Source: Candidatus Latescibacterota bacterium | Lineage (GTDB): Bacteria; Krumholzibacteriota; Krumholzibacteriia; WVZY01; JAKEHA01 | DNA length: 64,000 bases | NCBI GenBank assembly: GCA_963707635.1 | Contig: OY970173.1 | Span: 2,496,001 to 2,560,000 of the forward strand | Reading direction: 5' to 3' | In this document: positions 1 through 28,843 of the stretch, piece after piece | Layout of the letters: every line of letters begins with the position of its first letter | Numbering within the stretch: the first letter of the stretch is position 1 | Program-made: the position numbers and the translations under genes | Notes under the pieces: model-generated | Seen by the model: the letters and a program-made list of their open reading frames with translations, nothing else | Database searches by the model: none | What the model was told of the DNA's origin: nothing

Positions 1-1
1 G

Positions 2-232
2 AATCAGCTCGTCGCGTGACACCTCGCGCCCGCGCTCGGCCAGCCGGGCCCGCACCGCGTCGATGTGCTTGAGCACGGCGGGTGTGAGCCGCACTACCAC
101 CTCGACTTCCTTGGCGTCGGGTGAGAGCGGCGAGCGGCCGCGAATCAGCTTCGACACCGTGTCGGAGGCGGCTGCCTCCTTCGCGTCCTCGAACGGGTCG
201 CGCCCCATCGATCGCTTGCGTCGTTCAGGCAC
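2..232 (-). CDS. Small ParA partner, probable ribbon-helix-helix protein (3' end runs off the window)
   Basis: Not in the ORF track. Manual translation from GTG at 232: MPERRKRSMGRDPFEDAKEAAASDTVSKLIRGRSPLSPDAKEVEVVVRLTPAVLKHIDAVRARLAERGREVSRDELI... It overlaps the parA stop and has GGAGG at 245-249. The strand-helix-helix pattern (VVVRL..L..ID...VSRDELI) is RHH-like. Confidence 0.65.
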   Translation of the reverse strand, partial: MPERRKRSMGRDPFEDAKEAAASDTVSKLIRGRSPLSPDAKEVEVVVRLTPAVLKHIDAVRARLAERGREVSRDELI

Positions 233-962
233 GGGACAACACTTCCTCCGTCAACTGGTAGTAGTCGAACGCCCCGCGCGACATGGGCGAATACTCGAAA
301 ATGGTCTGGTTAAAGCTCGGTGCCTCGCGCAGCGACGTATTCACCCGGATCACGGTCTTGAAGACGAGATCCTTGAACCGGTCGCGGAGCGTGTCCAGCA
401 CGTCGATCGACAGTCGGGTGCGCCCGTCGTAGAACGTGGGCAGGATGCCGAGGATCGAGGTCTGGCGCGTCGAATTGTCGTTGATCTCGTCGATGATCTG
501 CATGGTCTGGCGCGCGCCCGCCTGCGCCAGGTAGTCCATGCTCACCGGGATGATCACCTGGTCGGCGTACACGATCGCGTTGATATTGATGAGATTCACC
601 GTCGGCGAGCAGTCGCAGATCACGACGTCGCATCCGCGCAGGTTGCGAAGCGCCATGTCGAGACGCCGCTCGCGGCTGGTGCGCGACGCCAGCACCATCT
701 CGATCTCGGCCAGGTCGCGCCCGCCGGAATCGATGACGAACAGGTTCTGCCGGGCCTCGATCACGTCGACCTCGCCGTACTGGAGCAGGTCGCACAGCGT
801 GCGCTGCCCCTTCAGGTCGAACGCGATGGCCACGTTGCGCTGTGGGTCGCAGTCGACCACCAGCACCTTCATGCCGCACAGGGCCAGCCCATGGGCGAGG
901 TTGATGGCGGTGGTCGTCTTCCCGGTTCCGCCCTTGGACGTGATGATGGCGATCTTCCTCAT
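225..962 (-). CDS. parA: ParA/Soj-family ATPase (orphan, no adjacent parB)
   Basis: MRKIAIITSKGGTGKTTT deviant Walker A, VDCDPQ, ICDCSP, ILPTFYDGRT and LREAPS. ATGA overlap with the upstream gene. Confidence 0.92.
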   Translation of the reverse strand: MRKIAIITSKGGTGKTTTAINLAHGLALCGMKVLVVDCDPQRNVAIAFDLKGQRTLCDLLQYGEVDVIEARQNLFVIDSGGRDLAEIEMVLASRTSRERRLDMALRNLRGCDVVICDCSPTVNLININAIVYADQVIIPVSMDYLAQAGARQTMQIIDEINDNSTRQTSILGILPTFYDGRTRLSIDVLDTLRDRFKDLVFKTVIRVNTSLREAPSFNQTIFEYSPMSRGAFDYYQLTEEVLSRA

Positions 963-3900
963 GCCGCGTCGTCGTCCTCGTCGCCGTCGTCGGCTTGCTC
1001 CTGCTCTGAACCGCCGCGATCGCGCAGCTGCTTGCCGTACTTCTCCCACCCGAGCGCGCGGAGCTTGTGGTCGCGGTCCACGTTTCGGTCTGTCACGGCC
1101 GAGTCGATGTCGAGATCGCCGGGCGTCGCCTCGTCGCCGCCGGCGTCGGCGAACTTGCCGCGGCCGAAGACCGGGGGCTCGTGGGGGGCCTCCGGCGGCG
1201 GACTCCCGTCGCGTGGCGTGCGGATGCTCGGGGCGCTATCCGCCGGTTTCCGGGTCGGCCGGACGGCCGGCGCGTCGGCTGGCCGGCCCGGCAGGGTCGC
1301 CGCACCCGGTCGCTCGCCCAGCACGTCGTCCAGCCCGTCCGCGTGCGTCTCGGGAGCTGCCGGGGCCACCGGCCTGGGCGGCCTGGGCGGCGGGCTGGCG
1401 GCAGGTTCCCCGGGACGCTGCTCGCGCACCGCCGCCACCGCCTCCGCGCGGGTGGCGAAGGCCGAAATGAAGGTCCGAAATTCGAGGCACGCGAACACGT
1501 CGGCCAGGTCGGTCCCCATGCCCGCCAGCGCCACCGCGCCGGTGGCCTCGAACGCGCGCGCGAACTGCCCCCACCCGCTGCTCGAGATGTACTCGACGCG
1601 CGTCAGGTCGAACACGATCGCGCGCGGAGCGCGCGCGAGCTCGCGCGAAAGCTCGTCGGACAAGAGCGACACCGCGGTGGTCTCCACCACGCCCGCGAGC
1701 GTGGCCACGCGCACTCCCTCGTCGCCGTCGCTCCATTCGAGGTCCATCCCCGGCGTGCTCGCGAACGAACGCCCGCGGGCCGTCTCCTCGGCGGCGGCCG
1801 CCGCCGGGGGCTCGTCCGCGATGGGCGCCGCCACGCGCCGGAAATCGTCGATCGCGTCGGCGAACATGTCGAAGGACGCGAGCACGATGTTGAACCCGAG
1901 CATGGTGAACACGTAGTACACGTCGGGGTCCATGCCGAAGAGTTTGATGTCCCCGCCCGCGCGGCGCACCTCGCGCAGGCGCTCGGTGAACACGCCCCAG
2001 CCGCCGCTCGACACGTACTCCACGAACGTCATGTCGACGACGACCCGGTTGCGCCCGCCCGCGAGCACCTGGTCCAGCGCGGCCCGGAGCCGCTCGGCGC
2101 TCACCGTGTCGATGATGCCCTTGAGCTGGAGCACCGCGATCTCTCCGCGTTCGCCGACGGTGGTGGCTTCGATGCGCAGGCTCTGCCATTCCATCGACGC
2201 CCCCGCCGGGGTCCCGCCCGTGTCGATGCCGTGCGACGACGCCATCGTATCGGCGCCCAGGTCGCGCCGGACCGGAGGCGCGCTGACGCGCCGTTGCTCG
2301 GGCGGGAGTGCCAGGTACGCGCGCGCTTCCGCGAGGCCGGGAAACGCACGCAGCACGTCGGCGAACCCGAGCAGCTCGTACACGTCGAACACCTCGGTGG
2401 TCATCCCGCACAGCACGATGTCGCCGCCGTGGTCGCGGAGCCCGCGCACTTCGCCGACGAACAGCCCCCACCCGCCGCTCGACACGTAGGATGTCTCGCC
2501 GAGGTCGACGACGATGCGCAGTGCGCCGGCCACGATCAGGTCATGCAGCTTGCGCTCGAGCGCGGACGAAGACGACGAATCCAGGTGCCCGGCCAGCCGC
2601 ATCTCTGTGATGCCGTCGGACGACGAAACCGCGATGCCCACGCCCTCGACCCGCTCGGTGATCTCGGCCGGGAGCGGCGCGCCGTCCGGCGCGGACGCGG
2701 GGATCGCCGGGGGCGCGACCCCCGGGATCTCGCGCAGGAGGTCGTCGACCAGGTCGCGGCGCGGCGCGGGTATCGGCTCCGCGCCCGGCACCTCGGGCGC
2801 CTCACGCCGCAGGCGGTTGCGGCGCAGGTAGTCGAGGCGGAGGTCTTTGGTATTCAAATTGAGCCGCTTGAGCTCCTCGTACACCATGCGCTCGGAAATG
2901 TGCTGCGACGGGTCACGGTCGCGGTTGTACTCCTCGGTGATGCGCTTGGCACCGAAATCGGGGTTGGCGGCGATGGTGCGGATGATCGCCTTGCGCGCCT
3001 CCAGGCTCACGCGCTTCAAGCTGACGTCGTCGCGCAGGATGTCGTTGCGCAGGCCCCGCTCGCCCATGGTTTCCAGCCGCTTCTTGTACCGGTAGAAGGT
3101 CGCCGGGGAGACCCGCATCTGCTGGCAGGCATCCTTCACACTCATGCCCTGCAACTCGACCATGTCGATCAGCTTCTTGCGAATGTCGAAGAGCACGTCG
3201 TCCGCCGTCATCTTCTCCTTCACCGCCACGACGGTGATGTCGTCGCTCTGCGGGTAATCCAGCGTGAAGCGCTTGATGTCCAGATCCAGCTTGGCGATGA
3301 ATTCCTCGGGCGAGAGGTAGCCGTGGGTCTTCACCATGTCCAGCAGGCGCTCTTCGCCGTACTGCTCGCGGCGCTCGTTCATGGCCTCGGTCACGCCGTC
3401 GGTGTAGATGACGAGCATGTCGTCCTTCTTGAGGCGGACCTTCTCGACGCTGATCGAGCGGCGGAACAGCGATTCGTCCGGCAGGCTGATGCCCACCGGG
3501 AAGCCGCGCGGGTTCAGGAAGAACGTCTCCCGGGTCTCGTGGCGGTAGAGAATCATCGGGTTGTGGCCCGCGCTCGCGTAGCTGATCACGCGGTTCTTGG
3601 AATCCAGAATGACGTAGAACATCGTGACGAACATGCCCTTCTTCATGTCGTCGGTCACGAAGGCGTTCATCTTCGACATCACGTCGCTGGCGTTGCGGTT
3701 GCCGCGGGCCTCCATGCGCAGCGCGGTCCGGATCATGGTCATGACCAGCGAACCCGGCACGCCCTTGCCGGACACGTCGGCGACCACCACCCCGATGGTG
3801 TCGTCGTCGACCTGCACGAAGTCGTAGTAGTCCCCGCCCACCTCGGCCGCGGCCTGGTAGAGCGGCGCGATGTCGTAGCCGCTGATCTGCGGGCGGCGCC

Positions 3901-5215
3901 GCGGGAGCAACGACTGCTGGATCTGCTTCGCGACCTCGATCTCCTTCTGCATCTTCTCCTGCTCGAGAATCGACGTCTGCGCCTTGCGGAACTTCTCGGT
4001 GATCTCGTTGAACACACCGGCGATGGCGCCGATTTCGGCCGGACCCCGGATGTCGAGCTTGCCCTCCAGGTTGCCGTCGCCGATCGCGCGCACGCCGTCG
4101 GTGAGCACCTGGATCGGCCGCACGAAGACCTGCACCAGCCCGATGACGAGCACGAGGCCGACTGCGAAAGTCGCCAGCAGGAGCAGCGACGTCTGCAGCC
4201 GCGTGTCCCGGATGGCGGCGCTCACGGCGTCCTCGTACACGCCGAGGTGGAGCCGCCCGATTTCGAACGAGCGTCCAGCCTCCCCCTCCACCGTCACCGC
4301 CACCGCGACGTCGCGGACGTCCTGATCGCCCTGGCGGTGGCGCGACCACGAGATCGCGCCGTCTTCGAGCAGCAGCTTGCCGGCCGGGGCCTGGTAGGGC
4401 TGGAACACTTCGTCGATCTGTCCGGACGCGCGAATATTGCCGGTCGCGTCAACCAGCCGCACGTAGGCCACCTCGTTCGAGCGCGCGACGAGCTTCGAAA
4501 GCTCCGCGGTCAAGTTCGTCTGCTCGATCGAGAACTCGCTCGGGTCGGTCAGCACGGGGAGGCTTCGACTCCCGAGGCTCTCCGCCAGCCGCCGTTTCTC
4601 GACCCACTGGTTCGCGCGCTGGGCCCCGATGTCGCGCGTCTGCCGGAGGAACACGAATCCCCACAGCACCGCCATCAGCAGGAACAGGCCCCCGCTGGCG
4701 CGCACCATGAACTTGAAGCGGAGCGTGCCGCGCAGCGGCATCTTCTCGGGGAGCACCGCGGCCGAGAACGCCGCCTGGCTGCGCTTGGTCAGGATGAGCT
4801 CGTTGCCCGCGTCGGTGGTGCGGTACTCGACCCCGTCCATCAGGCGGTTGATGAGGAATACGCCGAGCCCGCCCTTGCGCCCGGTCTCGACGTACTGGTC
4901 GAGGTCGGGGTCCTTGACGCTCGAGAAGTCGAAGTTCCGGCCCCGGTCCTTCAGGTGGATGCGCACGCGGCCGGAATCGATCTCGGCCACAACGGTGATA
5001 TCGCCGCCGGCCGTCTCGTACGCGTGCTTGATGATGTTGGTGCAGGCCTCGTCGACGGCGAGCTTGGTGTTCGAGACCTCGCGCGGGCTGAAGCCCGCGT
5101 CCTCGCACACCTCCACCACGAAGTCGCGAACCCGCCCCAGCTGCCCTTCCTCCGCCGCGACCGTGAGGTCGCGGACGTTGGGCTTCCGCTCCAGCATCGC
5201 CGCCGCGCGCGCCAT
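959..5215 (-). CDS. Membrane-anchored all-in-one partner-switching protein: RsbW-like HATPase - TM - extracytoplasmic domain - TM - HAMP - SpoIIE/RsbU PP2C - HTH - 3x STAS
   Basis: Kinase motifs LAVDEACTNIIKHAY, DRG and GGLGVFLI. Two hydrophobic TM segments. HAMP (RPIQVL...EIGAIAGVFNEI). PP2C motifs VGGDYYD, ADVSGKG, SAGH, YTDG and DDIT. HTH SVKDACQQMRVSPATFYRYKKR. Three STAS repeats with Y(V/I)SS(G/S)GWG. Start may be 5197. Confidence 0.9.
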   Translation of the reverse strand: MARAAAMLERKPNVRDLTVAAEEGQLGRVRDFVVEVCEDAGFSPREVSNTKLAVDEACTNIIKHAYETAGGDITVVAEIDSGRVRIHLKDRGRNFDFSSVKDPDLDQYVETGRKGGLGVFLINRLMDGVEYRTTDAGNELILTKRSQAAFSAAVLPEKMPLRGTLRFKFMVRASGGLFLLMAVLWGFVFLRQTRDIGAQRANQWVEKRRLAESLGSRSLPVLTDPSEFSIEQTNLTAELSKLVARSNEVAYVRLVDATGNIRASGQIDEVFQPYQAPAGKLLLEDGAISWSRHRQGDQDVRDVAVAVTVEGEAGRSFEIGRLHLGVYEDAVSAAIRDTRLQTSLLLLATFAVGLVLVIGLVQVFVRPIQVLTDGVRAIGDGNLEGKLDIRGPAEIGAIAGVFNEITEKFRKAQTSILEQEKMQKEIEVAKQIQQSLLPRRRPQISGYDIAPLYQAAAEVGGDYYDFVQVDDDTIGVVVADVSGKGVPGSLVMTMIRTALRMEARGNRNASDVMSKMNAFVTDDMKKGMFVTMFYVILDSKNRVISYASAGHNPMILYRHETRETFFLNPRGFPVGISLPDESLFRRSISVEKVRLKKDDMLVIYTDGVTEAMNERREQYGEERLLDMVKTHGYLSPEEFIAKLDLDIKRFTLDYPQSDDITVVAVKEKMTADDVLFDIRKKLIDMVELQGMSVKDACQQMRVSPATFYRYKKRLETMGERGLRNDILRDDVSLKRVSLEARKAIIRTIAANPDFGAKRITEEYNRDRDPSQHISERMVYEELKRLNLNTKDLRLDYLRRNRLRREAPEVPGAEPIPAPRRDLVDDLLREIPGVAPPAIPASAPDGAPLPAEITERVEGVGIAVSSSDGITEMRLAGHLDSSSSSALERKLHDLIVAGALRIVVDLGETSYVSSGGWGLFVGEVRGLRDHGGDIVLCGMTTEVFDVYELLGFADVLRAFPGLAEARAYLALPPEQRRVSAPPVRRDLGADTMASSHGIDTGGTPAGASMEWQSLRIEATTVGERGEIAVLQLKGIIDTVSAERLRAALDQVLAGGRNRVVVDMTFVEYVSSGGWGVFTERLREVRRAGGDIKLFGMDPDVYYVFTMLGFNIVLASFDMFADAIDDFRRVAAPIADEPPAAAAAEETARGRSFASTPGMDLEWSDGDEGVRVATLAGVVETTAVSLLSDELSRELARAPRAIVFDLTRVEYISSSGWGQFARAFEATGAVALAGMGTDLADVFACLEFRTFISAFATRAEAVAAVREQRPGEPAASPPPRPPRPVAPAAPETHADGLDDVLGERPGAATLPGRPADAPAVRPTRKPADSAPSIRTPRDGSPPPEAPHEPPVFGRGKFADAGGDEATPGDLDIDSAVTDRNVDRDHKLRALGWEKYGKQLRDRGGSEQEQADDGDEDDDAA

Positions 5216-5217
5216 GG

Positions 5218-7101
5218 CTAGCGCTGCCCCTCGACCTTGCGCACGCGCTCGCGCGCCTCCTCGATGGACCGCTGGACGCTTTCGTTGGTGGGATCGATCT
5301 CGAGGATCTTCTCCCATTCCGCGATCGCCTGCGCGTACTGGTCCCTGGAGAAGAACTGCATGCCGGCCAGGTAGAGCTCGCGCACCCGCGACTTCTCGGC
5401 GTCGGTGAGCGGCGTGGTGCGCCGCTTGGTCAACGCCATGAGTTTCTTGGCGTCGGCGTGGTCGGGCTGCAGAGTCAGGAGCTCGCGCAGGTCGGTCATG
5501 GCGCCCTGGTAGTTGCCAGCGTTGTACTTGGTGAGCGCGTCGTTATACAGCGTGACGATGCGGAGCTTGCGCTGCGAGGCCGCGTAGTCCTGGCTAACCG
5601 ACTCGATCTGCTTGCGGATGCGCGCGATCGACGTGCGGGCATTCGCGTTGTCCGGTTCGTATTGCTGCACGTTGTTCCACTCCGCGATCGCCTCGGTCAG
5701 GCGGCCGTCGCGTTCTAGCTGCTGCGCGCGTTCGGAGTGCGCACGGATCCGCTCGTTGATCTTCGCATTGGTTTGATCCAGGTAGTCGTGGGCGCCCACG
5801 TTGAGCGAATCGATCGCGAGGATCGCGTGCCACTCGGTGCGCGCGCCGATCATGTCGCCCTCGTTGAACAGGTCGAGCCCGCGGGCGAAGCGCGTGCGAA
5901 TCACGGCCTGGTTCCCCAGGTCCCGCACCGCCGCCGCCTGCTGGGCCAGCACCTGCTCGCGCGCCGCGTCGCGGGCCGCGGCCGCCTCCGCGTCGTCGGG
6001 CACGAATTCGAGGACGATCAGCCACTGGTTGAGGGCTCCGGCCCAGTCGTCGCTCGCCTCGAGCGCGCGCGCCTTCTCGCGGTGGGCGTTGATTCGCGTC
6101 TCGAAGGTGCGCTGGATGAGCAGCCGCTCGTCCTCGGCGCGCTGCGCCTCGATCGCCTCGCGCTTCTCGTCGAGGGTCTGGCCGAAGCGGCCGGTGAAGG
6201 TCACGGCCTGGTTCGAACCGCTCTCGTCACGCGAGTAGAATGCATAATCCACGCCGTAGTTGAACGCCCCCACGCCGAGCCCGAACGTGGGCGTGTCGTC
6301 GTCGAATCCGACCCGCAGCGCGACCAGCCGCGAGAACACGTACTCGGCGCCGGCGTGGAAGCGCCCGTCGGCACGCTCCGGGAGATCGTACTGCAGCATG
6401 AGCCGGAGCGCGGACCCGTTGTCGAACCTGCGCGTGTACCCGGCGCCGGCCAGGATGGTTCGATCAACCGTGTCGTCCTCGAGGTCGAGCTTGTACTGGG
6501 CGCCCACGATGTCCTGCAGGTTCACTCCCAGGGAAAGCGATCGCGCCCCGTCGGGTATGTAGCGGAAGCCGATGTCGACGCCGGGCGCCGTGCTGCTGAA
6601 CGGATCCACCTGCTGGCGGCTGATCTTGAAGGTCGCCCCCGCGGCCAGATTCCCGAACATCCACCCGAAATGGCGCTCGGCCGCGTAGGAGATGAGGAAC
6701 TGGCTCTCGCTGGCGTTACCTTCGCCGAGCGGGCGGCTGAACTCGTCGTACAGATCAAAGGTGGTGCCGACGTTCATGTAGCCCACGCCGAATGCGCCCG
6801 CCGAGAGGGTCGGGTAGACGAAGCCGAAGTAGGTATAGCCCGCCCCGGTGAACTCCCCGTAGAGCGGCATGTACATCGCCATGAACTGCATCGACTGCAC
6901 GTTGCGCAACGACGCCGGGTTCCAGTACACCGAGCTGGCGTCGTCGGCGAGGCTCACGAATGCCCCGCCGAGACCGATCCCACGCGACCCGGCGCCCAGC
7001 TTGAACGTGCTCGCGGTGCCGCCGTCCTGCGCGAAGGTGGGCGTCGTCAGCGCGACGAGCGCGGCGAGCAGCGCAACGATCACAACGCTCTGGTTTCTCA
7101 C
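5218..7101 (-). CDS. PorV/PorP-like outer-membrane barrel with C-terminal TPR repeats
   Basis: GTG start overlaps the giant-gene stop. Signal peptide (...TPTFA|Q). GAGSRGIGLGGAFVSLADDASSVYWNPA motif typical of PorV/FadL-like barrels. C-terminal helical repeats such as AIAEWEKILEIDPTN. Confidence 0.8.
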   Translation of the reverse strand: MRNQSVVIVALLAALVALTTPTFAQDGGTASTFKLGAGSRGIGLGGAFVSLADDASSVYWNPASLRNVQSMQFMAMYMPLYGEFTGAGYTYFGFVYPTLSAGAFGVGYMNVGTTFDLYDEFSRPLGEGNASESQFLISYAAERHFGWMFGNLAAGATFKISRQQVDPFSSTAPGVDIGFRYIPDGARSLSLGVNLQDIVGAQYKLDLEDDTVDRTILAGAGYTRRFDNGSALRLMLQYDLPERADGRFHAGAEYVFSRLVALRVGFDDDTPTFGLGVGAFNYGVDYAFYSRDESGSNQAVTFTGRFGQTLDEKREAIEAQRAEDERLLIQRTFETRINAHREKARALEASDDWAGALNQWLIVLEFVPDDAEAAAARDAAREQVLAQQAAAVRDLGNQAVIRTRFARGLDLFNEGDMIGARTEWHAILAIDSLNVGAHDYLDQTNAKINERIRAHSERAQQLERDGRLTEAIAEWNNVQQYEPDNANARTSIARIRKQIESVSQDYAASQRKLRIVTLYNDALTKYNAGNYQGAMTDLRELLTLQPDHADAKKLMALTKRRTTPLTDAEKSRVRELYLAGMQFFSRDQYAQAIAEWEKILEIDPTNESVQRSIEEARERVRKVEGQR

Positions 7102-10100
7102 TTCGCCACCGCGATTCGGAACTTGGCCGACTTCGAGCCCGCGTTCAGCACGCACACGTAGACGCCGTTGCGCACGACTTCGCCCTGACCGTTGCGGCCG
7201 TCCCAGGTCGTCTCCTGCGGCCCGGCCTGGGCGCGCGCGTCGCCCGAGGGAATCGTCTCTTCGTACACCAGGTCCCCGGTCAGCGCATAGATCTTGAGCG
7301 AGACGTCCGCCGGAGCGTCGAGGAAGTACGCGATTCGCGTCGCCTGCGATCCGGCGCGGAACGGATTCGGATAATTGTGCGTGTACTCCTGGAAGTTCCC
7401 GCTCAACACCACCAGCGATTGCGAGGTGACCTGCCCGTCGAGCGGCTGTCCCTGCGCATCGGTCACCCCGAGCGGGAGCGTCGAGGCCGGGTCTCGAACC
7501 ACCAGGCCACCCGATCGCACTCCCACACGAATCTCCGTCTCGCGCGGCTGCGCGTCCAGATCCAGCGCCACCACCGCGTTGACCGACGCGTTGGGCGCGA
7601 TCGTGCGATCCGCGCCCCCACCCAGGAGCGAGACCACGATCGGGTTGGTGGCGGGACTGGTGACCACGTAGGGCTGCGCACCGCCGAGGTCGATCTGGAG
7701 CCGCGCGAGCGTCGCCCCCACCGAAGCGGCCGAGAGCGGCTGGCCGTTCTTGCCGATCACGGTGATCGCAATGGTGTCGATCTGGGCATCGTTCACGCTG
7801 GGGTCGCTCGCGTTGTACGCGATCTCGACGCCCAGGAGGGTCACGTCGGCCGCGCCCGCGGGCACCACGCCGGTATTGATCCCGAGACTCTGCGACACGT
7901 TGCGCACCGCCACCGCGGCGCCTTCGGTCACCATGGCGATATTCGCGGTCCCGTTCGCCACCTGGGCGGGAAGACCGCTGTTTTCGTCGGCGGGGACGGC
8001 GGAGATCGTCACCGCGATCTGGTCGGGCCCGGACGGCTGCAGCGCGGCGTTGACATCCCACGCCACCGGTGTGCCCACCACGAACGGCTTCGCGACGGTT
8101 TCTCCACCCGCGAGCGTGTACCCGGGCGGGAGGCCGATCGAGAGCTGCCCGCCGGCCGCCACGCCCGCCGCGCCGGCTGCATTGGTCACGTTCGCCGTGA
8201 CCGTGAACGGAACCCCCACGCCGACCGCGTTGTCCGTGGCCTCCGGTGGCGCGGTCACACTCGCCGCCACCGAGAGCGAGGCGCGCGGCACCGTCGTGAC
8301 GGCGACCGTGTCCGCGACGGAAGGCACCGGGTTCTGCGAGTTCTCGTCGATACCCGCGAAGGTCACGACCGCGTCCGCCGCGCTCGCCGGCAGGCCGGGC
8401 GCAATCACGCTATACGTCACCGACAACACGCCGCCAGTTCCGTCGCCAAGGTCCCGCACCGGCCCCCCACTCGTCACGATATACCCCGCGGGCAGTGCCA
8501 GCGTGGCGGTAACGTTGTCCGTCGTCGAGGTCGCGGTCACTGCCGCCCGCAACGAGAAGGTCTGGCCCACGCTCACCGTGTCGTCCACCGCACCCGCCGG
8601 ACTGGTCGCCGACAGGCTCGGAGCCGAGAGCGCGCCGCCCGTCGCCACCGTGATCGACACCTGGTCGTCCGGCTGCGACGAGAATGCCGGCGCCGCCAGA
8701 TTGACGTCGTCAGGCGTGGTCGTGAGCGTGCATGTGAAAGCGACGGCCGCCTGCGGCGCCGCCGGCGCGGTCACCGTCCAGTCGATCGCAACGCCCGCGC
8801 TAAACGCCTGCACGGGCGATTCCAGCACCGAGAACCCGGACGGGCTCGTCAGCTTCACGTCAGCCGCACCGGCGAGGCTCGCCTGACCCGCGTTCGTCAC
8901 CAGGCCCGTCACCGTGAAGGTCTGATTCGGGCTCACCACCCCGCCTACGGCGGAGCTGGTCAGCGACAACACCAGGTCGGCGCGTCGCTGCGTCACCACC
9001 AGGTAGGTGTTGTCGACCGGGGGCTGCGGAATCACCGGCTGCCCGGAGTTGTGCGACACCACCCCGGATAGGATCGAGGAAGTGAACGTCTCGAGCGCCG
9101 CGGGCGCCGCCGGTGCGGTCACGCGGAACACGAAGGTGTGGCTCTCGTCCACGGCGATCGACTGGCGGCGCAGGCTCGCGGGCGCGACGCTCGACGCGCC
9201 GTCCTTGGCCAGCGACACCCGCACACTGTCCACGTCCTCGCCGCTGTTCTGGACGGTCACGTGGATCTCGTACGCGAAGCCGGTATTGACCGTGTCGCGA
9301 TTGGCGGTCGCGTGGTTGAAGGTCCCGAAGCCGGTAGTCGCGAGAATCGCGAGGCCGGCGACCTCCTGCACGCGCACGGTGGTGGCCCCGGCGTCGGAGA
9401 GTGCGATCGTCGGGTCGTTGCGGTCGTTGCCGCGCGCCCCCAGTGCGATGTCGACCAGCCCGGTGTCGCTCCCGGTCACGATCACGCTGTATACGAGCGA
9501 GTCCACCGCGCCTCCCGGCAGGCGCCAGGCCGGCGCGCCCGAGCCGAACGCCGTCGGCGGCTGAACCACGTAGTCGATCTTCGTGGCTCCCGCGATGGAG
9601 AAGGCGACGTCGGCCGCGACCGGCGGCGTCAGGTCCGCGCTCGCCTGTCCCGTATTCCGGAGCGCCACGACGATGTTCCACGGGTTCGACTGTCCCTGGG
9701 TCACGGACGCCTGCGACGGCCGCACGCTGGTGATGTCGAGCACCGCCGGCGACTGGATCGCGACGGGTGCAGTCGCATCGAGGGGAGGATTGTTCAGCGC
9801 CACGAGGTTGCTCTGCGCCGAGTTCTCGTCAACGGCGGATACGAGCGTGGTCGTGAAGGTCTCCAGCGTCGACGACGTCGCCGACGCCGTCACCGGCCAG
9901 GCGTACGCCACGGTCTGCCCGGCGGCGACCTCCGCGATCGGAGACACCGGCTGTATCGTGCTGAGCCCATCCGTCGCCATGCCGACCACGACGTCGCGCG
10001 CGTCCGCCTGACCGGTGTTCTGCACCTGCAGGATCACGTCGAAGGCCTGGCTTTCGTTCACGGCGACCGGATTCGGGGCCGCGACGGTCGTGGTGGTGAT

Positions 10101-13100
10101 GCGCAGCTGCGCCAGCGTCTCCACCACGATCTGACCGTAACCCGTCGACGCAACCGTCGTCGCCGAGCCCGCCGTCTGCGAATTCGCCTCGATCCAGGGC
10201 ACGGTCGCGTCGATACGACGCGTGCCGGCCGTAGTCCCGGTGGTGTCGACTATAAAGAGCAGGCTGTCGACCGACCCGCCCTCGAGCACGGTACCTCCGC
10301 CCAGCAGCGCGGACGAGGCCACGAACGCCCATCCCGCCGGCGGGCCCGCAAAGGCGATCCCGGCGCTCGCCGCGGCGACATCGACGTCCGCGCCCCCGGT
10401 GTTCGCGAGCACGACCCGCACCGACCAGTCGGCTACCTGGCCCGCGGTCACGTCCGGTCGCGACGTGTGCGTCGCGACCACCGCCACCGCCGCCGGCGAC
10501 TGCACAACGACGCTCCCGCGCCCGCCGTCGAAGGTATTGTCGTTCACGATCGTGAGATGGTTCAGGTCGCGCCCTTCGACGCGCCCGCTGATCACGATGT
10601 TGCCGGTCCTCGTCCCGGTCTGGGTCACGAGAAACTCGATGGTGCCGGTCTCGAGGGAGTCCAGAATGTCGCTGGCGCCGCCTCTCATCACGGGCGGGCT
10701 GACCGTGTACGTGAGATCCGGCTGCGCGTCCGGCGCGATGAACGTGAGGAACGTCTCCGCCGGCGAAAGGTCGAGGTCGATGGGAGCGGCGCCGGTATTC
10801 ACGACCGTCATGGTCGCGGTCCAGTCCGCGGTCTGTCCGGCGGTGACGCTCGGCTGCGACACGACGATCTGCTGGATCGACAGCTGCGGCGGCACCTGAA
10901 CGGTGACACCGTTGGGCACGACTTCCGACTCGGTCATGTCGATCTCATTGGCGTTGTAGCCGAAGTCCACGTTGAAGGCGTAGGGGCCGAGCGGAATCCC
11001 CGATTCAACGACCTTGGGCTCGAACAGGAGTCTGACCGTCTCGCCGCCGCGAATCGAATCGGGGCTGCCGAGAGCCAGGAACGCGCTGAATTGGTTGGCC
11101 GCAAAATGGACGCGCGTCAGGCCGTGGTCGAGCACCGCCGTTGCCGCGTTGGGGTTCGCGTTCGCCACGTCGACCTCGAAGGGGACGACCGAGCCGCTCG
11201 TGACCCCGGACGGGTCTATGTCGACGACGGTCAGGTTCGGCGACGCCTGCACACGGATCGAGCCCGCGCCCGGCGACGACAGCACGCGGGTGCTGTTCGT
11301 CTCCACTGCCGACACGGAAATGTTGAGCGCCTTCACGCCGTAACTCGAAAACGTCCCGGTGTTGTTGGCGTGCGCGATCAATGTGCCCGAGCTGCCCCCC
11401 GCGAGAATGAGTCCACCCTCCTCCAGATCCGTCGGCTTTACGAACACCGTGGGGCCGCCATCGTCCTGGATGCCGATCGTGAACCCGGCTGGCAGCGTGA
11501 GGCGCGCGTCCGATTGTCCGGAGTTGTGCACCGCGACGGTCACGTCCCAACCGAACGCCGTGCCCGCGGTCACGGTGCTCTGCGACGGCGTGACCGAGTC
11601 GACGACGATGTCCGCCGGGGTCTGGAGCGTGATCGAGCCCGTCCCGCCGCTGCCCGTGTCGTCGATGACGATGGTCCCGGTATTGATCTCGCTGCCGGTC
11701 ACGGTCCCGCCGATGGTCGCCACGCCGGCGCCGCCCCCCGTCGTCGTGACCAGGAAGCGCAGCGTGTCGGTCTCTCCGCCGGTGAGCGTCGCGCCCGACG
11801 GCATGGTGGCGGGGTTGACCGCCCAGCCCGTCGTGCCCGGGAACGTGAGGAACGAGTTCGCCTGAAGCAGCGACACACCGACCGCCGCACCGCCGGTGTT
11901 GCGCACCGCCATCTTCACCGCGTACGACTTCGCCGTCTGTCCCACCGTCGCCGTGGTCTGCGCGGTGGTGATGCTCTCGATGCTCAGCGCACCCGGAAGC
12001 TGGAGGGCAAAGCTGCCGGTGCCGCCATCGCTGGTGTCGTCGGTGAGAATGTCGCTCGAATTGAGATCGGTGCCGCGCACGAACCCGTTGACGATGATCG
12101 TCCCGACGGTATTCCCGGCCCCCTGCATACTAAAGACGAGCGAGTCGATGGCGCCGCCGTTGAGTATGGTGTTGCCCGCGTCCTCGAGTGCGGTCGGCGA
12201 CACGATCGTGTACTCCGAAGTGACGGGGGCGCCCGTGCCCAGCACGTTCAGCCCGAGTTTCGTCACCGCCGGGTCGAGGTCGAGGTCGACCGCCGCCCCA
12301 CCCGTGTTCTGCACCACCATCGTCACCGTCCAGGGCACGGCCTGCCCCTGCGTCACCGTCGCGCGGCTCGATCGCACGCCCACGATACTCAAGCTGGGCG
12401 CGTTCTCAACCGTGATCGCGCCCCCAATCGGGATGGTGCGCGTGCCGGTGACGCCGTTTTGCGTCCAGTGCAACTCGAGCACCGCGTCGGCCTGACCTCC
12501 CGTCAGAATCCCAGCCCCCACCACGGCGCCCGTGAAGAGCAGCGTAACCTGCGCGTCGGCGGCCACGTCCACCGGGCTCGTCTGGGTCAGCCCCACGTTG
12601 AACTGGTTCGAACCGAAGCGCAGGCGCGACGTCGTGCGGTCGAGGGTCAGCGTCGCCCCGCTGGGCGTCACCGGGTTGCTCACGGTCACCGCGAAGGCGA
12701 CGGACGTCCCCTTCGACACGCTCCCCGGCGCCAGCGACACGTAGGCGGCATCCGGCGCCTGCTGGACGGTCACGCTGCCCGTGTCGAAATCGTTTCGCGC
12801 CACCCCCGAGTTGAGCTCGGTGCCGTCGACGTCGATAGTGATTGTTTTCGACCCGAACGAGCTGTATGCGCCCGCGGTGGTGAGCGGGATCAGGAGCTGA
12901 TCGGTTTCGCCCCCGGAGAGCAGCGTGCCGCCACCGACGAGCGAGGCCGGCACAATGTACGCGGGCGGGGTAGTCGCATTCTGGAAGACGACGCTGACCG
13001 CCGCCCCGAGATCCAGGTCGACATCCGACTGGCCGGTGTTGGTGAGTGTCGCGACGACCGCCCACGGCACACTGGTCCCGCTCGTGATCGTCGTCCGCGA

Positions 13101-16100
13101 CGGCGTGATACCCGACACGGCGATCAAGCCCTGCGACTGCACGAGCACGCTTCCCAGCCCCGAAGACGAGACGGACAGCGCGCGCGCACTGTTGCTCTCC
13201 ACACCCGCGGTGGCCACGTCGACCATGGTCGGCCCGGTCACGCTGCCCGACTGCGTCACGTCGAACACCATCGTGTCCACTTCGCCTCCGGAGAGCACCG
13301 TCCCGCCGCCCACGAGCGCGGGCCGCACAGTGGATACCCAGCCGGCCGCCGGCGAGAACACGAGCCGCGACGTGGGTCCGGCGAGCGTGAGCACGACGTC
13401 GCTCCCGCCGGTGTTACGCACCGCGGCGCGCACCTGGAACGTCTTGCTCATCCCCTGCGTCACCTTCGGCTGCGACGGAATCACGGCGTTGAACGTGACC
13501 GCCGCCGGAGACTGGACCAGCAGGTTGCCCTTGCCGCCGAGGTTGGTGTCGGCGAACAGCGGCTGGCTGGTGTTGACGTCCTCGACCTCGAGCGCGCCCT
13601 CGATGGTCATGTTCCCGACCGTGGTCGCGTTGCCGGTGTTGTCCGAGACGTTGAACACCACCGTGTCGACGTCGCTGCCGGTGAGCAGCGTCCCTCCGGA
13701 AAAGGCCGCCGGGGTGGAGACCACGAATTGATTGGTACGGTCGACGCCGGCGTGGATGAAGCGCAGCGTCGCGGCCGTGAAGGTGACGTTCGCCCCGCCG
13801 TTGTTGGCCACCACCATGCGCACCTTGATGGGCTTGCCCTGGTCCTGGGTGAACAGCGGCTGCGACGGGATCATGGAGAGGATGGCGATGTTCGGCGCGT
13901 CCTGGACCAGCACGTTGTCCGCGACTGTGATCAGCTGGCCGAAGGGGAGGCCGTTTTCGAAGCCATTCAACTGGACCTGCGGGACATATGACGCGCTCGC
14001 GATGGATCCGCTGACGGACGTGCCCAGGAATTGCAGCGTGGTGGTACCGGGCGGCAGCGACGTCGGACCCGACGGGTTGAGCGCCGCGGTGAAGGCGCCG
14101 GCGGCGAACCGGATCGTGGTCGTCGCCGGGGAGAGGTTCACGGTGGCAAGGCCGGTGTTCACGAGCTGGACGGTGAACGCGACCGTCGCGGTCTTGCTCA
14201 CCTGGTCCGGGTCCAGCGCGTCGCCGGCCGCCGACGCCACACTCGCCGGCGTCACGACCGACACCGGGCTGCCGGTGAGCAATACGGGCGGCCAGGTGGA
14301 TGGCGCGCCGTTCTCGGTGCCGTGGGCGTCGAGCGTCACCGGATACGAACCGGGCGTGAACGTCCCCGGCACCGCCCGCGGCCGGAACGTCATGGTCTGC
14401 ATCGCGTTCCCGCCGGCGATCGCGTAGTTCTGCGTGGGCGACGCGCTGAACGTGCGCACGCCATCGGTGAAGGTAAGGCGCGTCGTCGTGGAATCCAGGA
14501 ACGCGAGCCCGCCGCCGGTGTTCCGTATCGTCGCCTGGAATGCGTAGATCTTGCCGCGAGAGGCGACCACCGGCGTCAACGTGGACGGCTCATAGGCCAG
14601 GATGGCCGCGGCCACGACTTCAACGGTCGCGCGCGGGTAAGGCGCCACCGCCAGGTCGACCACGGACTGTCCCCCCACGGTGCCGGTCGCAGCAGCATCG
14701 ATGCTGTAGAAACCCAGCGTCGCTCCGGTCTGTACGGTCACCGGGACGTTGAACACGCCGGATGCGCCCGGGCCGAGCGCGAGCCCCAGCTCGGGAGCAT
14801 TGCCGACGATGAACAGACCGGCGGGAATGAAGGTCAAGTCGATGTCGTTGATGGTCGTGCTCTGGGCCCCGTCGTTCTTGACCGTGACGGCGATGCTCGT
14901 CCCATAGCCCCGGCTCACCTGCCCCGACGCCGGCACGATGCCAGTGATTTCGATGTTGGTGACGAGCAGCGAGAGCGCGGGGAGGCTGCAGGCCACGTTG
15001 ACGGGCGCGGTATTCGCGTCCGCGCCGATGAGCGTCGCCGTCGGCGCGTACTGGGCGGTCAGGAAGGCCGGGTCGATGGCGGCCGACGCGAAGGCGAGGA
15101 TCGCGTTGCCGCTGCCCGGCACCAGCTGCTGCGCGGCCAGATTGGCCGAGTAGCTGTGGGTCCCGTCCGTGAACGAAAACGTGGTCGCGGTCGTCAGGTT
15201 GACCGACGTCGGCGACGAGTTATTGACCACCACGCTGAACGCGACCGAACTCCCCGGCACCACGATGGCCGGTGTGGGCGGGGTGTTGCACACCAGCACG
15301 GGCGGCGGCGCGAACGTGATATCGATGGTCCCGCTCGCCGTCCCGGTGGCGCTGGTCATCGTCACCGTCGACACGCCCACCGTGGTGGACGAACGCAGGT
15401 CGAACGTGATGGTGCCATTCGCCGCGATCGTCTTCGGGCTTCCACCCACGATGAAGCCGCCGAGGTTGGCCGACACGTTCACCGACAGCCCCGCCGTTAC
15501 CTGGTTGGCAAACGCGTCTCGAATGACGCCGCTGGTGATGGTCGTGGTCGAGGTGCCGTTGGCCGTGATCGTGGTGCGGGTCGCGGTCGCCGTGATTGCC
15601 CCGGCGGGTGCGGCGGGAACGACCGTCACCGCTTCACCCAGCCCCGTCACCGAGGGGTTGCCGACGGTGGCGGCGCGCACCTGGTAGGTCTGCACCTGGG
15701 TCGCGGTGACGGTCGTGACCGCGACGCCGTTGGACAGAGTCAGCGGGTTGGTGCCGAACACCAGACCGACGCCGGGATCCCCGGAGAGTGCGACCTGCGT
15801 CGCGTCGTCGTCGACGGGGTTGTTGTTGATGTCGTATGCCGTGATGGTGGCGTTCTTCGAAACCCCCGCCGTCGTCGACGACGCATTCATGACGACGGTG
15901 TAGTAGGCGATTCCGCCCGCGACCGTGGTGACGTTGAAGGTCACGCGCTCGCGTGCGGCCGGGGTGCCGTCCAGAATCGTCGCGGCCACCGTGCTAGGCC
16001 CCGCGGTGGTGGACGTGTGCAGACGCGCGACCGCGCGGCCGTTGGCCGCCGACGCGGCGATACCATCCGTCGAGTCGCCCACCGAATCGCGCAGGAACCC

Positions 16101-19100
16101 GCTCGGCGCCGGCGACGACTGGACGAGATACCTCACCGCCTGGCCCGCGACCGGGTTGCCCCACTGGTCGCGCACTTCCGTGCGCAGCGGTTGAGTCACC
16201 CCCACCGGTATCGACGGTGGGCTCGATCCGGCCACGTAGACCACGCGATACGCGGGGCCGTTGGTGACGGTCACTGTCGGGCTGATCCCGGTGGGACCGC
16301 CGCCCTGCGTCTGCGCCCCGACGGTGAACGTCTCCGCGACGGTGTCGCGCACGGTGGTCACGAACTGACCGGCGGCGAGCGTGCCCGAGACCGCGCCCAG
16401 GGTGGCATTCCCGGTGTGCAACACGTCGATAACGGTCGAGTTGTCCTGTGTCCGGTAGTTGTTGTTGGCGTCGCGCGCCTTGATGGTCACCGAGGTCACC
16501 TGGTTGGCGACGAGCGCCGTCGACCCGGTCGTTATCTCGTAGCTCGCGATCGGACCCGCGACCGTACTCACCGTGAAGTTCACCGTCTCCAGGGCCGGCG
16601 GCGCCCCGTCGAGAATGGTCGCGCGCACCAGGTTGGTCCCCGATCACGGTCCCGGTGGTCAGCGTCGTCGACACGTCTCCGGCCGCGTTGGTCGTCCCCG
16701 ACGGCGGTGCCGGCGACCCGCCGCCCTGGGTGACCGCGAACGACACCAGCTGGCCGACGACCGGATTGCCGAACGGATCGAGCACGCGCGCCGTCAAGAG
16801 CCGCGTCGCCCCCGCCACGATCCCGCTCCCATCGCCCGCCACGTTGGTCACGCGGTAGGCGGCGGCGGGTTTGATCTTTACAATGTTGGAGTAGCCTTCG
16901 AAGCTGCCGGCGTCCCGCGCCCGCACGCGCATCAGCTCGGCCACGGTGTACGATTCGTTGACCACCACCGCGCCCGCCACCAGCGTCGCCTGCGTGACCG
17001 ACAGCGGATTCCCGGTGGGGGTCGTCGTGACGTCGTCGACCGCGGTGAGCGTCACCGAGTTGCCCGCCGACGTCACCTTGTTGTTGAAGGCGTCGCGCGC
17101 CTCGATCGAGACGTTGAACGCCGCGCCCGCGATCGCGCTGTCGGCGGCGATCACCGCATAGCTCGCCACCACGCCGGTGTGGGTGACGGTCACGACTCGC
17201 TAGGTCGCCGGTGAGCCCCGCGGCTGCCGCCGCGATATCCCAGCCCCCAGCCGTCGGTCCGCGGCCGTAGACCGTCCGCGAGCCGCCGATCAGGTTGAAC
17301 GTGGTCGTGCCGACGCCGAAGTCGGTGAGGCTGAAGACCAGCGAGCTGCCCGCCTCCGGCGTCAGCGTCACCAGGCTGGTGTTGCCCGTGTCGAGGTTGT
17401 CGCTGCCGTCCAGCGCCTCCACCTTGAACGAAAACGGACTGCCCCGCCGGCGCCGTGCTGGCCGACAGGAACGTGATCTTCAGGTGGGTCGCGCCGCTCG
17501 AGACGGTGTTCACCGCGAACGTCACGCGTTCGCGCGCGAGCGGCGAGCCGTCGAGAATCTGCGCGTTCACCTGGTTCGTCCCCGCGGTCAGCGCGGTGTG
17601 GTAGGTCACGAGCCCGCGCCCGGAGCCGTTGGTGACGACGATGCCGTCGTTGGGATCGCCGTCGGTGTCGGTGAACGACGGTGTGCCGTCCGGCGCCGAC
17701 GCCACGGAGAAGGTGGCGAGCGCGCCGGGGACCGGGTTGCCGTAGAGGTCGCGGACCTCCACCTCCAGCGGGCGCGTCGTCCCCGCGGTGACCCCGCTTC
17801 CGTCGCCGCTGATCTTCACCACGCGGTAGGTGCCCGCGTTGGAAACCGAGACGACCGCGCTGGTGCCGCTCGGCGGTCCCCCGCCCGACTTCTCGGCGGT
17901 GATGGTGAACGTCTGCACGACCGTGTCCCGCACGGTGGTGGCGAACACGCCGTTGGTCAGCACCCCGGTCGCGGCCCCGAACTGCGCGCTGCCGGTCGAC
18001 GAGAGCGTGACCGACGTCGTATTGTCCAGCGTGACGACGTTGTTGCCCGCGTCGTAGGCGGTGATCGTGAGCGGCACCGTCTCGCCCGCGAGCAGCGAGG
18101 TCTGCTGCGGCACCACCGTGAAGTAGGCGATGCCGCCGGCCACGGTCTGTCACGCTGAACTCGACCAGCTCGTCGCTGGGAGGAACGCCGTCGAGGATGG
18201 TCGCGCGCACGCGGTTGTCGCCGGCGACGAGACCGGTGGTGAGCGTGGTGGCGGCGGTCCCGCTCCCGTTGCGTGGCGATCGACGCCGGCAGCACCGACC
18301 CGCCACCCTGGAACGCGACGAATGACACCTGCTCCCCCGCGACCGGGTTGTCGTAGGCGTCGAGCACCTGCGCGGTGAGCACGCGGGTCGCGCCGGCCGC
18401 GACGCCGATGGCGTCGCCGGACACCTTGGCGATGCGCTTGGCGGCCGCGGCGGAAACCGTGACGATGCCGCTCGTCCCTTCCTTGCTCCCCGCGTCGCTG
18501 ACCTTGACGCGGATCGCTTCGGCCTTGGTGTACGACTCACCGACCGTCGCCTGACCGCCAGCCAGGGTCGCACCGGTAACGAGCAGCGTCGACTGGGCGG
18601 GCCCGGGATTGATGTCGTCGATCGCGGCCAGCGTGATCCCGTTCGACGCTCCCACCACCCGGTTGTTGTACTCGTCGCGCGCTTCGATCGAGACGTTGAA
18701 GGTCGCCCCGGCCACGACACTCGCGACGGTAGACACGGCGTAGTCGTCGACGAGGCCGGTGTCGGTGACGATCAAGGGTTCGGTATCCGCGCCCAGTCCG
18801 CCGCCGCTGGTGGTGACATCCCAGTTCCCCGCCAGCGTGCCGAGCGTGTAGACCGTGCGCGCGCCGGAGGCGAGTGTGACCTGGGTGACGGTCGCGCCGA
18901 AATCGGTGAGGCTGAATTGCAGCCCGCTGCCCGCTTCCGGGGTCAGCGTGACGATGGCCGCGTTGCCGGTGTCGACGTTGCCGGTGCCGTCGACGGCCTC
19001 GACCAGAAACTGTACGCTCTGCCCCGCGGGCCGGGTCGAGGGTCCGACGAAGGTGATGCGCAGATTGGTGGCGCCGCTCGCGGTGGTGGTGTAGGTCACG

Positions 19101-21668: not shown

Positions 21669-21740
21669 TTTTCGAACGGGCGTGCTCGACTTCCTGGGAC
21701 GGCGGCCGGCTGGACCGGGCGGAGAACCCATATCGACGCG

Positions 21741-21756
21741 TGCAACTCCCATGCCC
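21741..21756 (-). promoter_or_regulatory. Candidate sigma-54 (-24/-12) promoter of the giant-adhesin operon
   Basis: Minus strand GGGCAT-GGGAG-TTGCA versus consensus TGGCAC-N5-TTGCA, about 70 nt upstream of the probable start. Confidence 0.45.
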
Positions 21757-21853: not shown

Positions 21854-21882
21854 ATGGTAGCAGCCGGAGGCGGAATAGGCAA
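21854..21882 (-). promoter_or_regulatory. Alternative sigma-70-type promoter for the giant-adhesin operon
   Basis: TTGCCT-17-TACCAT with a TG extended -10 on the minus strand. Confidence 0.4.
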
Positions 21883-22022: not shown

Positions 22023-22403
22023 TCAGGGGGCAATGGCGAGCACTTTCACGATCGAGTTCCGGCTGTTGAACCCGTCGGGTTCCGACAGCGGGTTGGCGGG
22101 ATCCGGGACCCAGTTCTTCCCGTCCACCACGAACTTGTACGCGTACGTTCCCGGCGACAGCGGGTAGTAGAGCGTCCACTCGCCGTCGGAGTTGTCATCC
22201 GCCATCGGATCGGCCGTCGGCGACCAGTCGTTGAAGTCGCCGACGACACAGACCTTCTTCGCGTCGGGATTGCGATAACGAAACAGCACTCCGCCTTCGA
22301 CCAGTTGCGGGCCGGCCGCCGGGGTCGGCGGCGGCGGTCCCCCGCACCCCGTACACAGGACAGCAACGAGGACCGCGGTCCCAACCCGGCGACGTGTCAT
22401 CAT
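22023..22403 (-). CDS. Lipoprotein with CBM48/AMPK-type glycogen-binding domain
   Basis: MMTRRRVGTAVLVAVLCTGC lipobox. VCVVGDFNDW...PGTYAYKFVVDG.NW..DP.NP. Confidence 0.85.
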   Translation of the reverse strand: MMTRRRVGTAVLVAVLCTGCGGPPPPTPAAGPQLVEGGVLFRYRNPDAKKVCVVGDFNDWSPTADPMADDNSDGEWTLYYPLSPGTYAYKFVVDGKNWVPDPANPLSEPDGFNSRNSIVKVLAIAP

Positions 22404-22831: not shown

Positions 22832-22842
22832 CGCCTTCGCTT

Positions 22843-28834: not shown

Positions 28835-28843
28835 TTCGCTACC

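Follow-up and report, generated by a model that had tools for sequence, protein, structure and literature searches.

RsbW-type kinases phosphorylate a serine of STAS-domain proteins and PP2C domains dephosphorylate it, as in the SypE/SypA pair of Vibrio. SypE carries kinase, input and phosphatase in that order, and its control of SypA, a STAS protein, acts at a level downstream of transcription (PMC3610818). We describe a stretch of 64,000 nucleotides (the window) from contig OY970173.1 of a Candidatus Latescibacterota bacterium, an uncultured organism of Krumholzibacteriota type, in which one minus-strand gene, the fusion gene, encodes a kinase, a sensor, a phosphatase, a double helix-turn-helix (HTH) and three STAS domains on a single chain. 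On balance, and with limited confidence, we lean toward reading its product as a SypE-like membrane kinase/phosphatase that would set the phosphorylation of five STAS domains, likely controlling a giant surface protein without a sigma factor. By our comparison, the fusion protein would work like SypE but is not SypE.

The fusion protein shares with SypE/SypA of Vibrio fischeri the plan of an N-terminal RsbW-type kinase, a central input and a C-terminal PP2C on one chain (PMC3610818, PMC10120452, PMC8256260), and in both cases a STAS substrate is encoded in the same locus and the locus builds a surface structure; no sigma target is known for SypE. The input of SypE is described as a REC domain, whereas the fusion protein has two predicted transmembrane (TM) segments, a Cache-like domain and HAMP, and no REC domain appears in its Pfam or NCBIfam lists. 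SypE is also not known to have an HTH, tethered STAS domains or a ParA neighbor, all three of which the fusion locus has, and the product linked to SypE is a polysaccharide, while that at the fusion locus is a protein of type IX secretion system (T9SS) type.

Other described partner switches share parts of this plan. Rv1364c of Mycobacterium tuberculosis is likewise a single polypeptide that combines sensor, PP2C, kinase and STAS (PMC9138534; PDB 3ke6), and its own STAS serine is reported as the substrate of both enzymes (PMC9138534). Its order is PAS-PP2C-kinase-STAS, with one STAS and a link to SigF; we found neither that order nor a SigF-type sigma factor above cutoff here, and the fusion protein is instead kinase-first, with a predicted membrane sensor, a double HTH and three STAS domains besides two free STAS proteins. 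The Bacillus systems RsbU/RsbV/RsbW-SigB and SpoIIE/SpoIIAA/SpoIIAB-SigF have homologous domains with the same acceptor Ser and docking residues (6m36, 1th8, 1tid; PMC8256260) but, unlike the fusion protein, consist of separate proteins with a cognate sigma factor. In the PA3346/PA3347 system of Pseudomonas aeruginosa, PA3346 carries both activities on one chain, although as a response regulator fed by HptB (PMC8256260), and Chlamydia RsbU/RsbV/RsbW has two STAS substrates and a ligand-responsive phosphatase, although its kinase is a separate protein (PMC8256260); the excerpt of PMC8256260 describes neither an HTH nor a tethered STAS for these two systems.

The architecture is a variant of a known partner switch. 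Fusions of kinase, phosphatase and STAS on one chain have been described before, and none of the domains is of a new family. We found no description of this particular architecture in open-licence PMC and bioRxiv texts, judged by titles, openings of abstracts and passages; supplementary tables of domain architectures, for example Table S1 of PMC13712970, could list such fusions. What partner switches without a sigma factor, such as SypE/SypA, act on downstream has yet to be established in the field. In this family, which is conserved, candidate outputs lie beside the sensor, namely the double HTH, ParA and the secreted giant protein. It also offers a natural series of separate genes, a fused core, a core with two STAS domains and a core with three, which lets one ask how tethering the substrate affects the kinase/phosphatase cycle, and the predicted cytoplasmic parts of the fusion protein are all expressible in a laboratory host.

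The fusion gene and its catalytic domains

The fusion gene runs from ATG 5215 to TGA 959 with no internal stops. An earlier note on this DNA, made from its letters, had proposed that a kinase, two TM segments around a sensor, HAMP, PP2C and three STAS domains share a single frame; the stop-free frame, Pfam and hydropathy bear this out, and the domain coordinates it gave agree with ours within about 55 bases (Table 1). In the fusion protein, Pfam recognized HATPase_c_2 (aa 20-144, E 6e-29), HAMP (363-407), SpoIIE (470-666, E 7e-48), HTH_28/29/23 (678-724) and three stretches of STAS (E 1e-41). Among NCBIfam models, the anti-sigma antagonist superfamily scored above its cutoff, and the equivalog cutoffs for RsbW, SpoIIAA, SpoIIAB and SpoIIE were all missed. 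The double HTH, which the earlier note named only in a list of checks, and the C-terminal motif at aa 1372-1400 were missing from its description, and its reading left the HTH, ParA and surface-protein context unused. We rejected ATG 5317 as a start; it overlaps the gene upstream, which encodes a PorV-family protein with tetratricopeptide repeats (TPRs), and homolog conservation begins at about residue 15 counted from 5215.

Table 1. Features of the window, from the left edge to the promoter region (all on the minus strand; aa, amino acids or residue numbers of the fusion protein)
Feature	Coordinates	Strand	Basis
Ribbon-helix-helix (RHH)-like gene, 90 aa, continues past window edge	1..232	(-)	RHH_1 only E 0.03
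Soj-like ParA ATPase	225..962	(-)	T. thermophilus Soj E 3e-41; Walker A invariant 18/18
Fusion gene, 1418 aa: kinase-TM-sensor-TM-HAMP-PP2C-double HTH-STAS x3-conserved tail	959..5215	(-)	Frame, Pfam, homologs
Conserved C-terminal motif GWxxY after low-complexity linker, aa 1372-1400	1016..1102	(-)	Homolog alignment
STAS3, aa 1160-1262; S1212 at 1582; most diverged of three (0.40)	1430..1738	(-)	Pfam
STAS2, aa 1010-1125; S1070 at 2008; best conserved of three (0.68)	1841..2188	(-)	Pfam
STAS1, aa 862-975; acceptor-equivalent S913 at 2479	2291..2632	(-)	Pfam, 1th8/1tid alignment
Bipartite double HTH, transposase/paired type, aa 670-800	2816..3208	(-)	Pfam, NCBIfam, model, Foldseek
PP2C/SpoIIE phosphatase, aa 441-668	3212..3895	(-)	PF07228 E 7e-48; PDB 3es2, 3ke6, 6k4e
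Predicted TM2 (aa ~341-365) and HAMP (aa 363-415)	3971..4195 (TM2 4195-4121)	(-)	Hydropathy peak 2.7; Pfam
Predicted extracytoplasmic single-Cache-like sensor, aa 192-340	4196..4642	(-)	Weak sCache_3_2, homolog, Atlas
Predicted TM1, aa ~169-191	4643..4711	(-)	Kyte-Doolittle peak 1.8
RsbW/SpoIIAB-type Ser kinase, aa 14-146	4778..5176	(-)	PF13581 E 6e-29; RsbW 6m36 E 4e-14
PorV/PorQ-family protein, C-terminal TPRs	5218..7101	(-)	NF033709 91.8 bits, cutoff 90
Giant Ig-repeat (Big_1/Invasin_D3) surface protein, FlgD-like/T9SS-type C-terminus	7098..21700, start approximate	(-)	Domain searches
Sigma54-type -24/-12 site GGCA-N6-TTGC, upstream of giant gene	21742..21755	(-)	Positional conservation
Sigma70-like -35/-10 match, 127 bp upstream of sigma54-type site	21854..21882	(-)	Loose pattern

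A homolog search gave 1520 matches, and among the best 120, which we used, 114 (counting the query) were longer than 1300 aa, at 47-93% identity; every one of these with a taxon in its source name came from Krumholzibacteria or Latescibacteria. The kinase-to-PP2C core gave a strong, stop-free match in 54 of 121 genomes of the phylum, in a single copy each (one match begins at residue 162), and lay inside an open frame of at least 1335 aa in 44 of the 121. Families f3 (0/9) and f6 (0/49) gave no core match with this query. In rough codon counts of the fusion gene against three relatives, nonsynonymous change was well below synonymous change for the kinase, PP2C, the HTH and all three STAS domains in each of the three pairwise comparisons, while the linkers came nearer the synonymous level. 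Among sequencing runs searched for the sequence, none contained half of its words, and no RNA run was listed. Given that 114 of the 120 best homologs are this long and that the stop-free core recurs in 54 genomes, and given that the catalytic motifs and the three acceptor-equivalent serines are invariant in 113-114 of the 114 long homologs, the frame is neither a chance reading nor a chimera, and the fusion protein is real and conserved. Internal stops or a chimeric assembly, which the earlier note had named as grounds for giving up its reading, were not found. In one genome (G078, a single contig; L087/L088), the sensor gene is broken inside the HTH and its halves lie about 870 kb apart, through either rearrangement or misassembly.

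The kinase residues E56, N60, H64, D90, G92, G116 and G118 are kept in 113 of the 114 long homologs, with a gap in the remaining one, and the N, G1 and G2 boxes of a GHKL serine kinase are intact. R30 of the kinase and D879 and D1036 of the STAS domains stand at the Arg/Asp docking positions of RsbW and SpoIIAA alignments (PMC10120452). The PP2C domain is the most conserved of all (mean identity 0.83), and its motifs GGDYYD, VADVSGKG, YTDG and DD occur in 114 of 114 homologs, with the acidic residues of a PP2C metal site at D462, D465, D480, D606, D658 and D659. We take these Asp residues to be metal ligands. The earlier claim that kinase boxes, PP2C Asp motifs and STAS acceptor serines are intact thus extends to the homologs (113-114 of 114), under purifying selection.

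Kyte-Doolittle analysis gave exactly two hydrophobic segments in the fusion protein, the first of which has an equivalent in most family representatives and was missed in some. This predicted two-TM topology would place the kinase, PP2C and STAS domains in the cytoplasm, and it supports the proposal, made in the earlier note, that enzymes and substrates are all cytoplasmic. The sensor is the least conserved folded domain (mean identity 0.39) and is probably a single Cache domain: sCache_3_2 matched it weakly (E 0.065) and matched homolog P0205 at E 1e-7, and the top match of an Atlas search (0.97) belongs to a cluster with PF17203 on 63% of its members.

Likely STAS substrates, double HTH and locus

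The tethered STAS domains carry the motifs YVSSGGWG (aa 910), YVSSGGWG (aa 1067) and YISSSGWG (aa 1209). When STAS1 was aligned, S913, the second Ser of its motif, fell on the SpoIIAA serine of 1th8 (Ala in 1tid), and S1070 and S1212 were assigned as acceptor equivalents by their position in the motif. All three serines, the mark of a phosphoacceptor STAS, occur in 114 of 114 homologs. The SSxGWG loop differs from the SpoIIAA type in that a Ser replaces the Asp preceding the acceptor, and the docking Asp of STAS3 is Glu in 74 of 114 homologs. STAS1, STAS2 and STAS3 formed separate ortholog groups (support 96, 100 and 92) in a quick tree that carried long-branch warnings; the three positions have thus long been distinct. 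The GWxxY tail motif is present in 112 of 114 homologs.

Further STAS proteins are encoded nearby. Past the window edge, downstream of the fusion gene, the cluster continues with a TPR gene, a pair of free STAS genes, a VWA-like gene of 728 aa and an LTD-FlgD gene; the two STAS genes, 1.3-2.1 kb left of base 1, carry YISSAGWG, and the genome's five SSxGWG STAS motifs are every one in this cluster. No Sigma70_r2 match falls in the cluster, the 18 in the genome all lying elsewhere, and no sigma factor of SigB/F/G type (TIGR02980) exceeded the cutoff genome-wide (best 133 versus 234 bits); a cognate SigB/SigF-type sigma factor, which partner switching in its usual sense includes, is not encoded with the module. 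The earlier phrase "whole cascade in one protein" therefore holds for the parts named, which do share one chain, but not for a sigma factor or for the two free STAS genes. The switch it called intramolecular has its parts on one chain as well, but two free STAS proteins bear the same motif and most kinase-first representatives have no tethered STAS. The genome encodes four other RsbW-like kinases (G000:C1:17700-19070; 527100-531100; 2735800-2738900; 2327400-2328300), one with a STAS protein and a sigma factor of extracytoplasmic function (ECF) type and one with STAS and PP2C.

We surveyed the family through its best 150 representatives at 50% identity, 93 of which are kinase-first. Among these, 65 end in the HTH without STAS, 7 carry STAS and 21 have no HTH (some are fragments), counts that measure diversity and not abundance because clustering collapses the three-STAS clade. 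The seven with STAS comprise two with three domains, four with two and one with a weak single match that Pfam did not confirm, and many STAS-less members have long acidic tails, with TPRs at the end. Records that carry a taxon name show the core in Eisenbacteria, Calditrichota and KSB1 as well. In a quick tree of the HAMP-PP2C region (100 rows, midpoint root), the three-STAS proteins formed one shallow clade, one fragment included, nested in a group (support 97) that also holds STAS-less and two-STAS forms. Because of this nesting among STAS-less forms, the three-STAS protein is likely a late gain, the widespread core being kinase-sensor-PP2C-HTH without tethered STAS. In FCPU426, Goldiibacteriota, Firestonebacteria and Spirochaetes (L010-L013, L009), sensor-HAMP-PP2C and STAS are separate genes; at these loci the kinase is separate or fused to other domains, and some adjoin an upstream PorV-TPR-like gene.

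The double HTH, found in 72 of the 93 kinase-first representatives, matched HTH_28/29/23 above the Pfam cutoff. The IS481/IS630 transposase models of NCBIfam aligned to it with their N-terminal part only (model positions 1-124), far below cutoff, and Pfam and NCBIfam scans showed no DDE catalytic or integrase domain downstream of it. An alignment-based model of aa 668-800 (pLDDT 89.5), which replaced a single-sequence model (pLDDT 69), has two helical lobes with a flexible linker between them; its top Foldseek matches were TnsB (CAST, Tn7), Pax5, Pax6, MuA and Tc3, with probabilities of at most 0.98 and every E-value above 0.001. A PDB sequence search returned a TetR-like partial match only, and an Atlas search scored 0.85, which serves as a lead only. 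As modeled, the module resembles IS481/IS630 transposases, TnsB, Tc3 and the Pax paired domain in its two linked lobes, and unlike them it has no DDE domain and is fixed in a signaling protein across several phyla. Conservation is 0.74 in the first lobe and 0.60 in the second, and the first is degenerate or lost in some long-tailed family members. The free STAS proteins of Eisenbacteria (L005:12430-13098) and a KSB1-like locus (L032:6228-6935) have a C-terminal extension resembling the second lobe, by profile match in L005 and by eye in L032.

We compared 32 loci, chosen by us from the matches, with neighbors annotated by homology and not by full annotation. The fetched three-STAS loci share the order giant Ig-repeat gene, PorV-TPR, sensor, ParA, (RHH), TPR, two free STAS, VWA-like and LTD-FlgD, and the succession of giant protein, PorV/TPR and sensor is kept both within the phylum and at loci of Eisenbacteria, Calditrichota and KSB1. 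The genes are tightly packed in the window, with the PorV-TPR stop 2 bases upstream of the fusion-gene ATG and the ParA start codon overlapping the fusion-gene stop (ATGA). Of the 7 STAS-less loci whose downstream sequence was available, 6 have a free STAS there. Each of the 16 fetched three-STAS loci (from 15 distinct genomes) has ParA after the sensor, as do L007 and the two-STAS locus L086, and none of those 7 STAS-less loci, which also lack the tail, has it; the co-occurrence of tail and ParA amounts to two or three events, not dozens, because kin share the pattern. The same ParA subfamily occurs in 49 of 121 genomes, and in 0 of 8 in family f7.

The cluster has a conserved promoter-like site ahead of the giant gene. 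For this comparison 18 upstream regions were fetched, and L106 (a gap at the gene start) and L119 (no match) were left out. GGCA-N6-TTGC, which fits the sigma54 consensus tGGcacg / tTGCt (PMC4641369), was common to 16 of 17 regions, when the best word in 20 shuffles reached at most 8, and to 17 of 17 after the L114 region was lengthened; it was always in single copy on the sense strand, against a genomic background of 0.009 per 500 bases of one strand. The site is also present in the Eisenbacteria locus L005 and, altered at one position, at the KSB1 locus. The genome has RpoN and 14 strong matches to enhancer-binding domains, so a GG-N10-GC site, RpoN and enhancer-binding proteins, the ingredients of a sigma54 operon, can all be read from sequence. 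Because the pattern occurs across the window at about its expected frequency (2 matches versus 1.7 expected), the weight of the site comes from its positional conservation in relatives only; the second match (42165-42178, minus strand), inside a large secreted-protein frame, is within chance expectation. A loose sigma70-like pattern occurs in 12 of 17 regions, 117-276 bases upstream of the sigma54-type site, a count made without a chance control. Besides these two promoter-like sites, no third motif that might serve as an HTH operator rose above shuffles in 15 regions, a search confined to these promoters.

Proposed mechanism and its alternatives

In the mechanism we favor, an envelope ligand would bind the Cache-like domain and the signal would pass through TM2 and HAMP, mainly to the adjacent PP2C, with the N-terminal kinase as the opposing activity, against which the signal would shift the balance. 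Five STAS domains, three tethered and two free, would read that balance. The free STAS proteins may be the original substrate and are likely the output that diffuses, while the tethered domains, as a later addition, would likely serve as a scaffold and as a buffer or threshold on the spot, their phosphorylation occurring either in cis or between the chains of a dimer. More tentatively, the double HTH and the pairing of tail and ParA could tether the sensor to DNA and set its place in the cell. The process regulated would likely be the production of the giant surface protein or its display, with no sigma factor involved.

Several observations weigh against this mechanism. The giant protein is suggested as the target by gene neighborhood, which is not proof, the hydrophobicity of TM1 is moderate, and the positive-inside count gives no orientation (4 versus 5 K/R). 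Support for the three-STAS clade is just SH-aLRT 81, in a quick tree. The STAS-less Calditrichota locus L006 has no STAS in its fetched flank, and locus L101 (G025, family f6) keeps a free YISSAGWG STAS, VWA-like and LTD genes, although the sensor was not found there. The kinase also retains the N-terminal Arg used by anti-sigma factors; because of this Arg and the 18 Sigma70_r2 matches elsewhere in the genome, a distant sigma target is possible, and for the RsbW of Chlamydia the reported target is the housekeeping sigma factor (PMC8256260).

The double HTH raises the potential that the protein is a membrane-tethered one-component transcription factor, in which STAS phosphorylation gates binding to an operator, for example at its own sigma54 promoter. 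We regard this as unlikely, but far from negligible: the HTH is older than the tethered STAS domains, its lobes are conserved and under purifying selection, the closest folds are sequence-specific bipartite DNA-binding domains, and a free STAS of Eisenbacteria bears a copy of the second lobe. However, the 15 upstream regions share no further motif above shuffles, the Foldseek E-values all exceed 0.001, some long-tailed members have lost the first lobe or keep it in degenerate form, and sigma54 promoters require an AAA+ enhancer protein (PMC4641369), which the fusion chain lacks and for which the 14 strong matches lie elsewhere. A broader proposal, in which a transposase DNA-binding module was domesticated into a membrane-tethered regulator that is gated by phosphorylation of its own STAS array, placed by ParA and, without a sigma factor, controls a sigma54-driven T9SS cluster across several uncultured phyla, strikes us as rather unlikely. 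Alternatively, the chain could be a canonical, self-contained intramolecular switch, its dephosphorylated tethered STAS domains occupying the kinase and thereby releasing a sigma factor encoded elsewhere. Rv1364c, tied to SigF, is a one-chain precedent (PMC9138534), the three tethered domains keep their acceptor Ser and form three ortholog groups, and another RsbW of the genome adjoins STAS and an ECF-type sigma gene, so sigma-linked modules do exist in this genome. Even so, we hold this switch to be distinctly unlikely, since no sigma gene was seen in the loci annotated by homology, no SigB/F/G-type factor passed the cutoff, most lineages have the core without tethered STAS, and free STAS proteins are retained beside the fused form.

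The company that the tail motif keeps with ParA (16/16 three-STAS loci, L086 and L007, against 0/7 STAS-less, tail-less loci) would also suit a positioning scaffold, in which the HTH binds the nucleoid non-specifically and the tail recruits ParA, marking the place in the membrane where the giant protein is secreted, while phosphorylation switches assembly on and off. ATPases of the ParA/MinD type are known to position a cargo whose gene lies close to their own (PMC10241942), yet the co-occurrence here comes down to roughly two or three independent events, since kin share it, many members have the core but no ParA, and in some families the 90-aa RHH-like protein is an alternative partner for ParA, which makes this scaffold improbable. 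Finally, the frame-changed giant gene next door and the gene broken inside the HTH in G078 could hint that the fusion is an artefact of chimeric assembly or of read-through, or else the scar that a transposon recently left in a gene under decay. We give this practically no credence, because the 114 long homologs come from several databases, 44 of 121 genomes hold the long open frame, the HTH is under purifying selection, and independent assemblies refute an artefact. The SypE-like kinase/phosphatase acting on five STAS domains is thus the reading that we retain.

Neighboring genes

The giant gene (about 14.6 kb) has several frame changes at about 16600-19400 (minus strand) in this assembly. 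Relatives L103, L105, L107-L110 and L112 have long open frames across the broken part, and L004 and L095 show frame breaks resembling those of the window; the frame changes are probably assembly indels. The 90-aa RHH-like protein (also at L001:17961-18233) has a basic N-terminus, was detected in families f1 and f2 only and is a candidate activator of ParA. Upstream of the giant gene, 22026-29000 (minus strand) of the window holds CBM48-containing genes, and a CBM48 gene adjoins or lies near the promoter region in 12 of the 18 fetched relatives. Farther upstream in many relatives, we recognized by eye a pyruvate phosphate dikinase-like gene.

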